From NCBI RefSeq assembly GCF_022846255.1, contig NZ_AP025682.1: a stretch of 64,000 nt of DNA. One strand, 5' to 3'. Position 1 is the first letter of the stretch. Each line of letters begins with the position of its first letter. Position numbers: made by a program. The stretch is from Escherichia coli. GTDB taxonomy: Bacteria > Pseudomonadota > Gammaproteobacteria > Enterobacterales > Enterobacteriaceae. Positions 57,801 to 60,800 of this stretch are shown piece after piece.

Positions 57801-60800
57801 TTGTCGCCCGACATTGATAGCGGCTTACTCCATGCGGCAAATTTATTTATTAAACACGCTGACCTGCCATTAAATCTCAATAAACAGGTGGCATCTGGGG
57901 CTTTTACGCAATACGGATTTAAAGGGAACTTGCCTGCGGGTTTACAAGGATCTACGGGGCGAATCCTTTCTCGTTGGGGAGATTCCGGGTGGGGAAAGCA
58001 GGTAGCACAGGAGAAAAAAACGGGGCGCTTCAGTGATGAACTGGTGGAGGCATGTGCGGAAATGGTTCGCCAACGCTGGAATCCGCATCCTGAACCAACC
58101 TGGGTATGCTGCGTTCCTTCATTAAGGCACCTCGACCTGGTTCCTGATTTTGCCCGGCGACTGGCGGCGAAACTTGGCTTACCTTTTATTGATGCCATTG
58201 AAAAAGTCGTGGACAATCCACCGCAGAAAATGCAGCAAAACCGTTTTCACCAGTGTCAAAATCTCGACGGGGCGTTTGTGATTACCCCTCCTTTGATGCC
58301 AGGTCCGGCGTTGCTGGTTGACGATATCGTGGATTCTGCATGGACGCTGACAGTTCTGACAGCACTGTTACGCCAGGCAGGTTGCCTGACGGTTTATCCT
58401 CTTGCCCTTGCTTCTACCTCGGTAAAAAATTGATGAATCTTTCAGCCAATGCTCAAGCAACTCTCCTGCTAACCAGCGATTTTTCTCGCGCGGCGGCGAG
58501 TGAGTATAAACCTCTTAGTAATAGTGAATGGGGGAAGTTTGCATTATGGCTGAAGCACCAACGTATCAGTCCCGCCGAGCTTCTGGTGCCGCAACCGCAA
58601 GAGAAACTTACAGGCTGGAGCGATCCGCGTATTTCTCAGGAGCGAATTCTTGGCTTGCTGGCGCGTGGTCATAGTCTGGCGTTGGCTGTAGATAAGTGGC
58701 AACGCGCCGGTTTATGGATCTTAACCCGCGGAGATGCCGATTATCCCGTTCGCTTGAAAAACCGATTGCGAACAGATGCACCTCCCGTTTTATTTGGCTG
58801 CGGGAATAAAGCATTACTGCAAGCGGAAGGTATGGCGATTGTTGGCTCGCGAGATGCTCCGACTGACGATTTGCGCTATACCCAACAACTGGCCGCGAAA
58901 CTGGCCCAACAGGGGATTTGCGTTATCTCTGGTGGTGCGCGAGGTATTGATGAATGTGCAATGGCCTCGGCTCTGGAGGTCGGGGGAACTGCCGTTGGCG
59001 TATTAGCTGATAGCTTGTTAAAAACGAGTACGTTAGTGAAATGGCGTGAAGGGCTTATAGCAGGCAACCTGGTGTTGATTTCGCCGTTTTACCCAGAGGT
59101 ACGTTTCACCGTCGGCAATGCGATGGCGCGGAATAAATATATTTATTGCCTTGCTGAAAGCGCAATGGTTGTACGTGCGGGAATGACCGGTGGAACGATA
59201 ACCGGGGCGATGGAGGCATTAAAACATCAGTGGCTGCCCATGCAGGTTAAACCAAATCAGGATATGCAATCAGCCAATTCACGATTAGTAGAAAATGGGG
59301 CGTCATGGAGTGCTGAACAGGCTGAGAATGTGACGATCAGACTGCCAGACGTTCCTGGGCTGATGTATGACAGAGCACTCCGTAACGCTCAACCAGAACT
59401 GTTTTCGCTGCACGAAGATGACGCAAATTACGCAGTAATGCCCGCGCATACCCCTGTCGATTTTTATCAACTCTTTGTGGCGGAACTGGCGATCCTTGCA
59501 AAGGAATCGATAAGTATTGAAAGGCTGGCGTCTTGTACTGGTTTAACCATCGAACAAATTAGTGTGTGGCTGAACCGCGCAGAAGAAGAGGGAAGGGTTA
59601 TCCGATTGGGCGAAGGTCATTATCAGTTCAGGTAATAAAACAGGTGCCGCGTCTGGTTGTGTGCAACACCTGTTTGAACCTTACCCCTTCATCCACATTC
59701 GAATGCCGTCGAGGAACATCTGAGTTGCCATCATCACCAGAATCAATCCCATCAGGCGTTCAAGTGCGTTCACCCCTTTCTCGCCCAGCAGACGTAAAAA
59801 TAGCGAAGACTGTAGCAGGATGACAAAGGTGCCGCCCCAGGCCAGCAGCAGAGCAATCACCAGATGTCCCATCTGATTCGGGTACTGGTGAGACAACAAC
59901 ATCAGCGTGGCGAGAATAGTCGGCCCGGCGACTAACGGAATTGCCAACGGCACGATAAATGGCTCTTCACCTGCCGGAAGCCCGCTGCTATTTCCTGAAG
60001 CGCTGGGGAAAATCATCTTAATGGCGATCAGAAACAGAATGATGCCGCCAGAAATGGAGACGGTTTCTGCCCGCAGGCTAAGAAATGCCAGAATTTTCTC
60101 TCCCGCAAACAGGAACACCAGCATCACAAGGAGAGCAATAAGCAACTCTCGCACCATGATTGCCCGCCGTCTTTTCGGTTCAGTATGTTTCAGTACGGAC
60201 ATGAAAATAGGTAGGTTTCCGAGCGGATCCATAATCAGGATCAATAAAACTGTTGCAGAAATGATTTCATTCATAACTCAAATTCCCTGATAATTGCCGC
60301 GGACTTTCTGCGTGCTAACAAAGCAGGATAAGTCGCATTACTGATGGCTTCGCTATCATTGATTAATTTCACTTGCGACTTTGGCTGCTTTTTGTATGGT
60401 GAAAGATGTGCCAGGAGGAGACCGGCACATTTATACAGCACACATCTTTGCAGGAAAAAACGCTTATGAAAAATGTTGGTTTTATCGGCTGGCGCGGTAT
60501 GGTCGGCTCCGTTCTCATGCAACGCATGGTTGAAGAGTGCGACTTCGACGCCATTCGCCCTGTCTTCTTTTCTACTTCTCAGCTTGGTCAGGCTGCGCCG
60601 TCTTTTGGCGGAACCACTGGCACACTTCAGGATGCCTTTGATCTGGAGGCGCTAAAGGCCCTCGATATCATTGTGACCTGTCAGGGCGGCGATTATACCA
60701 ACGAAATCTATCCAAAGCTTCGTGAAAGCGGATGGCAAGGTTACTGGATTGACGCAGCATCATCTCTGCGCATGAAAGATGACGCCATCATCATTCTTGA

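Follow-up and report, generated by a model that had tools for sequence, protein, structure and literature searches.

The 45-bp gap between the convergent stop codons of psyrA and yhgN (59636-59680, read directly from the sequence) holds a real, non-random hairpin. It most likely serves as an ordinary signal for transcription to stop, at the right-hand end of the rqlHI/PsyrTA operon. We argue that it is most likely better built to stop yhgN than to stop the transcripts of the module. The scenario we favor, and consider probable, is an asymmetric terminator that would be mainly Rho-independent for yhgN and weak for rqlHI at best. All features discussed here lie within one window, a 64,000-nucleotide stretch of an Escherichia coli genome (contig NZ_AP025682.1, assembly GCF_022846255.1), and their coordinates are collected in Table 1.

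Table 1. Features of the rqlHI/PsyrTA segment and its edges, in window coordinates.
Feature	Coordinates	Strand	Basis
Whole segment, 3484 bp, replacing the 56-bp gntU-yhgN spacer of K-12-type genomes	56197..59680		genome comparison
Left-edge hairpin, 12-bp stem, 4-nt loop, then CATTTCTCTT	56208..56235	+	terminator scan
psyrT / rqlH, toxin, RecQ-like helicase + phosphoribosyltransferase domain	56334..58433	+	Pfam, PADLOC
psyrA / rqlI, DprA-like antitoxin	58433..59635	+	Pfam, PADLOC
U-rich tail of the minus-strand hairpin, UUUUAUUA, 6 U in 8	59633..59640	-	sequence
5' arm of the perfect 9-bp inverted repeat, AAACAGGTG (plus-strand sense)	59638..59646		sequence and repeat search
Core hairpin, 10 pairs CAGGUGUUGC / GCGGCACCUG, 12-nt loop 59651-59662, -14.4 kcal/mol	59641..59672	-	folding
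Variable stem positions, AA in the window, AG or GG elsewhere in E. coli	59665..59666		allele comparison
3' arm of the perfect 9-bp inverted repeat, CACCTGTTT	59667..59675		sequence and repeat search
psyrA-strand tail, UUUGAACC, 3 U in 8, poor U-tract	59673..59680	+	sequence
yhgN, convergent core gene	59681..60274	-	gene annotation

The sequence from 59633 to 59683 reads TAA TAA AACAGGTGCCGCGTCTGGTTGTGTGCAACACCTGTTTGAACC TTA. The psyrA stop codon is the first TAA (59633-59635), a second in-frame TAA (59636-59638) follows directly 3' of it, and the yhgN stop codon occupies 59681-59683 on the minus strand. A repeat search finds a single inverted repeat in the gap, with 9-nt arms that are 100% complementary and 20 nt apart. 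This confirms the 9-bp stem that the initial annotation had reported between the two stops. When the 45-nt gap was shuffled by mononucleotides 20,000 times, 0.125% of the shuffled sequences had a perfect inverted repeat 9 bp or longer whose loop measured 3-30 nt. The hairpin begins 2 nt past the psyrA stop and 5 nt past the yhgN stop. At these distances a terminating ribosome could cover the 5' arm.

The two RNA strands must be considered separately. On the yhgN (minus) strand, three flanking A-U pairs bring the stem to 13 pairs (59638-59650 with 59663-59675, AAACAGGUGUUGC / GCGGCACCUGUUU). All 13 can form because A59665 and A59666 become U on this strand and pair with G, which gives the core two G.U pairs (59665 with 59648 and 59666 with 59647). 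The minus-strand RNA of the 45-nt gap folds at -18.5 kcal/mol (z = -4.1), and 0 of 200 shuffles are as good. The U-rich tract directly 3' of this stem overlaps the tandem TAA TAA stops of psyrA on the opposite strand. A G/C-rich stem followed by a U-rich run, here UUUUAUUA, just past a stop codon is what is seen in E. coli Rho-independent terminators. One difference is the loop, which is 12 nt here rather than the usual 3-8 nt. A consensus terminator scan of both strands did not list the site, because the scan allows loops of 3-8 nt and the loop of this hairpin is longer.

The psyrA (plus) strand of the window allele has 9 perfect pairs. Positions 59665 and 59666 form C.A mismatches on this strand, so the effective loop is 20 nt, and the minimum free energy structure adds just a few weak pairs within it. 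The core stem-loop (59641-59672) is worth -9.9 kcal/mol. The 45-nt gap as a whole folds at -14.5 kcal/mol (z = -1.7), and 12 of 200 shuffles do as well. The tract directly 3' of the stem, UUUGAACC, is not a proper U-tract. For yhgN the hairpin is built like an intrinsic terminator, save for the long loop; for the rqlHI operon it is a weak version of the same design.

The initial annotation called the hairpin a likely bidirectional terminator and suggested RNA folding as a check. Folding agrees with this for the yhgN strand, with its 13 pairs and U-run, and gives a weaker picture for the psyrA strand, with its mismatches and poor tail. Since the element is asymmetric between the strands, the claim is only partly supported. 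We consider the label plausible but overstated for the window allele, judging from the predicted folds. It should not be assumed from a DNA palindrome that a terminator works in both directions, because the two RNA strands differ once G.U pairs are counted.

One can imagine a true bidirectional intrinsic terminator that is roughly symmetric and would stop rqlHI and yhgN with comparable efficiency. The 45 bp between the convergent genes hold one hairpin, which is preceded by an A-run (TAATAAAA) and followed by TTT, and the rare GG allele (16 genomes) forms a perfect 13-bp stem on both strands. Hairpin-dependent bidirectional termination is also common at E. coli convergent pairs (bioRxiv 10.1101/2022.10.23.513370). 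However, the plus-strand stem has one or two C.A mismatches in 99% of copies, the window included. Of the 8 nt in each tail, 3 are U on the plus strand and 6 on the minus strand, and the plus-strand fold does not stand out clearly from shuffles. We regard symmetric termination as unlikely.

The same preprint describes a model in which a nascent-RNA stem-loop fixes the site of head-on polymerase collisions. Our hairpin resembles the bidirectional terminators of Ju et al. 2019, as cited there, in being a single stem-loop in a short convergent gap. The class is defined by overlapping 3' ends, whereas the hairpin here is known from its sequence. The rqlHI-yhgN hairpin also differs from that class in being strongly asymmetric in its common alleles.

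Natural variation bears on this asymmetry. Alleles were counted by exact-match searches of the 45-nt gap in 5426 complete E. coli genomes. The window has AA at 59665-59666, an allele shared with O25b:H4-ST131 and found in 797 genomes. AG is present in 650 genomes, AG with the loop change G59651C in 178, and GG in 16. At these two positions O157:H7 has AG and EC1515 has GG. Other gap alleles account for 9 genomes, and one that was inspected differs at 59680 alone, which is outside the stem. The four common alleles make up 1641 of 1650 copies. Stem variation among them is G/A at 59665 and 59666 and nothing else; the 9-bp core does not vary at any of its 18 positions. A G at 59665 or 59666 restores a C-G pair on the plus-strand RNA, and an A produces a plus-strand C.A and a minus-strand G.U. 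All four common alleles keep 13/13 pairs on the minus-strand RNA. On the plus strand the Watson-Crick pairs number 13 in GG, 12 in AG and 11 in AA. The plus-strand core energies for GG, AG and AA are -20.5, -14.3 and -9.9 kcal/mol, and the minus-strand values are -19.1, -16.9 and -14.4 kcal/mol.

These strand-biased substitutions fit selection on the yhgN-strand structure, as weak evidence. The pattern consists of two positions, and in roughly a quarter of cases chance alone would let two transitions both spare the same strand. The gap showed no additional conservation. Six full module alleles differ by at most 4%, and across six alleles the gap has 3 segregating sites in 45 nt versus 3.6% in psyrA. 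It is no better conserved than the 3' end of yhgN in the same comparison.

Another line of reasoning is that the hairpin is a stabilizer of mRNA 3' ends against 3'-to-5' exonucleases, with transcription ending elsewhere, for example through Rho or where polymerases collide within the opposing gene. On the minus strand the hairpin is stable, and it is found directly past both stop codons. The large loop and the short plus-strand U-run are atypical of efficient intrinsic terminators. But UUUUAUUA directly after the minus-strand stem is a hallmark of intrinsic termination and goes beyond a mere stabilizer, so we find it quite doubtful that stabilization is the explanation. It must be noted that the stabilizer and terminator roles are compatible and not mutually exclusive.

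PsyrT is a protein of 699 aa with the Pfam domains DEAD and Helicase_C, a weak RecQ_Zn_bind and a weak C-terminal Pribosyltran. It matches the PADLOC PsyrT profile with E = 0 over positions 4-687 of 689. The next gene had been labeled DprA-like. That is right at the domain level (DNA_processg_A, 1.7e-50), and the gene is PsyrA/RqlI, since it matches the PADLOC PsyrA profile with E = 1e-202 over positions 1-397 of 398. PsyrT comes before PsyrA, adjacent and on the same strand, with overlapping stop and start. The psyrA start is most likely the ATG at 58433, which overlaps the psyrT stop; RefSeq annotates it at 58340. Both genes match their profiles end to end and have the published domain make-up and gene order, with no differences in the genes. 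These matches identify the module upstream of the hairpin as the known rqlHI (PsyrTA) toxin-antitoxin and defense operon. Sberro 2013 is said to be a source for this toxin-antitoxin and anti-phage system.

In the ExPEC strain F11, RT-PCR shows rqlHI to be a two-gene operon, and the pair is toxin-antitoxin-like (PMC4670107, Russell & Mulvey 2015). PsyrTA was later counted among the anti-phage systems (Millman 2022, bioRxiv 10.1101/2022.05.11.491447). In homologues the toxicity of the first gene is reported to be neutralized by the second, and phage defense has been described (PMC4670107; bioRxiv 10.1101/2022.05.11.491447). The rqlHI paper (PMC4670107) never uses the words "terminator", "yhgN" or "gntU" (0 occurrences of each) and describes neither a terminator nor a junction. 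A paper on antiphage system expression in E. coli strains holds no information on read-through or terminators. The module is already known, and its terminator and exact junctions are not discussed in the rqlHI/PsyrTA papers examined here. The hairpin is an ordinary operon-end feature beside an already described defense and toxin-antitoxin operon, and as such it matters little.

The edges of the segment can be placed exactly. Positions 56150-59900 were used as a megablast query against the 5426 complete genomes. The full segment is present in 1641 of them, and nearly all of the remaining genomes match about 7% of the query, at its two ends alone. Genomes with an empty site (strain 8A and UTI89) have a gntU-yhgN spacer of 56 bp, GTTTGTTCGCCCGGTAGTTGTGACGCTACCGGGTTCTTTTCGAAAAACTCTCCTCG. 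Homology to the empty sites ends after the gntU TAA (56196) and resumes at the yhgN stop (59681), with the edges exactly at the stops. This bears out the earlier claim that the hairpin marks the right edge of the module, and it fixes the right boundary of the rqlHI/PsyrTA segment at 59680/59681.

The hairpin is found once per genome in 1650 of the 5426 genomes, on chromosomes only and never on plasmids. It sits between psyrA and yhgN in all of the matches listed with annotation. A single copy in that position means that it belongs to the rqlHI haplotype, whose right edge it marks. Empty sites of K-12-type genomes lack the hairpin, and therefore it came along with the module rather than being native to the yhgN flank. 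The initial annotation had asked which of these was the case and proposed comparison with the 3' flank of yhgN in K-12. Local alignment in both orientations found no detectable similarity between the 56-bp K-12 spacer and either module junction. The idea that the hairpin is a remnant of that spacer was rejected, as the alignment is no better than with shuffles (fraction at least as good 0.51-0.75).

The K-12 spacer does hold a hairpin of its own, the gntU terminator (CCCGGTAG...CTACCGGG then TTCTTTTC). Both haplotypes have one hairpin shared by a convergent pair at the gntU-yhgN place. However, the sequences are unrelated and the polarity is opposite. The K-12-type hairpin has UUCUUUUC on the gntU strand (6 U in 8) and 0 U in 8 on the yhgN strand. 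In the module-bearing haplotype the U-run of the right hairpin faces yhgN, and gntU has a separate hairpin at 56208-56235. This left hairpin is likely the gntU terminator of the module-bearing haplotype, and it too came with the module. Both junction hairpins belong to that haplotype and not to the K-12 backbone.

A palindrome exactly at the edge of a variable segment could suggest an element that acts as DNA: a recombination or attachment site, the terminal repeat of a mobile element, a protein operator or a dispersed REP-like repeat. This does not hold up well. A REP/BIME or other dispersed palindrome was rejected, since the hairpin is found in one place per genome in 1650/1650 of the genomes that have it. 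Transposon ends or att sites were rejected too, because the left and right junctions share no repeat beyond chance-sized matches and there is no recombinase gene. The module is two genes with helicase, PRTase and DprA domains alone (Pfam, PADLOC), and neither has an integrase or transposase domain. A search of the hairpin against Rfam gave sub-threshold noise only, with no family match. The junctions fall at the stop codons of core genes, and this agrees with an exchange that went through homologous recombination within the flanking genes. We consider a DNA-level element extremely unlikely.

Other genera help to separate the locus from the module. A scan of a genome collection with PsyrA as the query returned 80 loci. 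The closest PsyrA proteins outside E. coli among these are from Silvania hatchlandensis (61% identical) and Klebsiella grimontii (57%). The hairpin cannot be traced at the DNA level outside E. coli because the closest PsyrA is just 61% identical. Both species have the module at the same site, after gntK-gntU and before yhgN-asd, except that K. grimontii has no yhgN. The flanking proteins of Silvania and K. grimontii are 91-96% identical to those of E. coli, PsyrT is 70-72% identical and PsyrA 57-61%. The left hairpin is homologous across the three genera, with the core CTGCGAG...CTCGCAG (the 5' arm is CTACGAG in K. grimontii). Its outer stems differ among the genera yet stay complementary.

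The sequence of the right hairpin is not conserved in Silvania. Its psyrA-yhgN gap (36 nt) has a hairpin of unrelated sequence, TGCGCCCG AGT CGGGCGCA, with z of about -3.1 on both strands. Two unrelated hairpins in one gap argue that a stem-loop is functionally needed there. This is also relevant to whether the E. coli palindrome arose by chance or is neutral, with no function at all. Such a palindrome would agree with a gap that is no more conserved than neighboring sequence and with the unremarkable plus-strand fold. It is at odds with the Silvania hairpin, with a shuffle probability of 0.1%, and with 18 core stem positions that are invariant in alleles covering 1641/1650 genomes. We give a functionless palindrome almost no credence.

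In many other Gammaproteobacteria a type I restriction gene, hsdR, begins 12 nt past psyrA and there is no hairpin. Since these psyrA-hsdR junctions lack it in many genera, the hairpin is not general to PsyrTA modules, and we rejected it as a general part of the system. From these comparisons of gene neighborhoods, the hairpin appears as a feature of the gntU-yhgN locus and its convergent arrangement, not of PsyrTA systems as such.

We can now describe how an asymmetric terminator would work at this site. Two transcription units, plus-strand rqlHI/PsyrTA and minus-strand yhgN, would share the hairpin as an RNA stem-loop at their 3' ends. It is known that yhgN is transcribed in K-12 (PMC7373196). 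Its transcripts would end intrinsically at the UUUUAUUA run, and the hairpin probably protects their 3' ends as well. Termination of yhgN would keep antisense transcription out of psyrA. The rqlHI transcripts would be stopped less efficiently, with the hairpin of the window allele acting as a weak intrinsic terminator at best. To be stopped, they probably depend on head-on collisions between RNA polymerases, with the hairpin serving to pause or position the polymerase. Convergent E. coli pairs commonly use one stem-loop and RNA polymerase collisions in both directions (Wang et al., bioRxiv 10.1101/2022.10.23.513370).

One can also imagine that the module brings a strand-biased insulator with it. 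Selection would then act on the hairpin solely as the yhgN-strand RNA, and the hairpin would shield psyrA from antisense transcription. Shielding would be selected because loss of the antitoxin would release the PsyrT toxin. The G-to-A drift at 59665 and 59666 would be tolerated because the yhgN-strand RNA is spared. This is a tentative idea, and we think it improbable that selection worked in this way. If it did, the AA, AG and GG alleles would be a natural series in rqlHI read-through into yhgN, and the terminator would help a toxin-antitoxin cassette make itself safe at a convergent host locus.

Whichever scenario is right, the three natural stem alleles are a ready comparison of hairpin strength versus read-through. 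The boundaries also matter for rqlHI work in ExPEC and ST131. Deleting 56197-59680 would remove the sole U-tract terminator candidate of yhgN along with the two module genes, and that of gntU as well.

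The site between gntU and yhgN/asd holds PsyrTA, a RecQ-like helicase and phosphoribosyltransferase toxin with a DprA-like antitoxin, in three genera, represented by E. coli, Silvania hatchlandensis and Klebsiella grimontii. The module proteins are 57-72% identical across these genera, whereas the flanking proteins are 91-96% identical. No mobility gene is present at the PsyrTA loci of this site in the three genera. The shared site could reflect an old presence/absence polymorphism, or it could reflect repeated allelic replacement by homologous recombination in the flanks. K. 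grimontii has lost yhgN.

The hairpins on the gntU side of the module are homologous in all three genera. Each retains the core CTGCGAG/CTCGCAG, with the 5' arm changed to CTACGAG in K. grimontii. The outer stems vary yet remain complementary (AATTA/TAATT, CATAAG/CTTATG and TAGCGCT/AGCGCTA). This covariation-type pattern supports a real gntU terminator that is carried by the module haplotype.

Coordinates of the hairpins and PsyrTA loci compared (window or comparison-locus positions)
Feature	Location	Genome or site	Similar loci
Left hairpin	window 56208-56235	E. coli	
Left hairpin	L009 3773-3806	Silvania hatchlandensis	
Left hairpin	L010 3774-3801	Klebsiella grimontii	
Spacer with single hairpin	L001 348-403	K-12-type empty site	
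PsyrTA module	L009 3902-7176	Silvania hatchlandensis	
PsyrTA module	L010 3902-7206	Klebsiella grimontii	
R subunit gene after psyrA	L022 7351-10464	Providencia rettgeri	L013, L023, L024, L042, L043

The K-12-type empty site has a single hairpin in its spacer, and this is followed by a U-run (UUCUUUUC) on the gntU side only. On the yhgN side the first 8 nt lack U altogether, which means that yhgN in K-12 has no canonical intrinsic terminator. Its termination may depend on a collision-type or Rho-dependent mechanism.

At the left edge of the window's module there is an 11-bp tandem direct repeat, AATTACTGCGA. One copy spans 56195-56205 and begins within the gntU stop codon, and the other spans 56208-56218. 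The repeat supplies two alternative 5' arms to the left hairpin, which has one 3' arm (56225-56235), and it does not differ among the E. coli alleles compared (6/6). It may be a scar left by a duplication, or it may allow alternative pairing. The left spacer is 137 nt in all and has 21 segregating sites, with its first ~85 nt almost invariant. Closest to the psyrT start, at 56281-56333, the window's allele, whose right-hand hairpin allele also occurs in ST131, is strongly divergent from five other E. coli alleles. The divergence hints at another promoter or 5'-UTR variant, or else at a recombination breakpoint.

RefSeq starts the DprA-like gene at ATG 58340, giving 431 aa and a 94-nt overlap with psyrT. 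The match to the PADLOC PsyrA profile begins at ATG 58433, and this start codon shares a single base with the psyrT TGA (58431-58433). We consider this shorter, translationally coupled start more likely than the RefSeq one.

In some lineages the toxin gene appears to have been inactivated and the antitoxin gene kept. Strain 114, from cattle, has a psyrT annotated as a frameshifted pseudogene next to an intact psyrA (L008 187-2311), and its PsyrA shares a protein accession with that of O157:H7 strain PA20. In a further genome (H1 NZ_OZ040267.1) the module contains an IS1.

Many other Gammaproteobacteria have psyrA followed after 12 nt by a gene for the R subunit of a type I restriction enzyme, with HSDR_N, SWI2_SNF2 and T1RH-like_C domains. 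PsyrTA lies inside a restriction-modification island in those genomes, unlike the E. coli locus.
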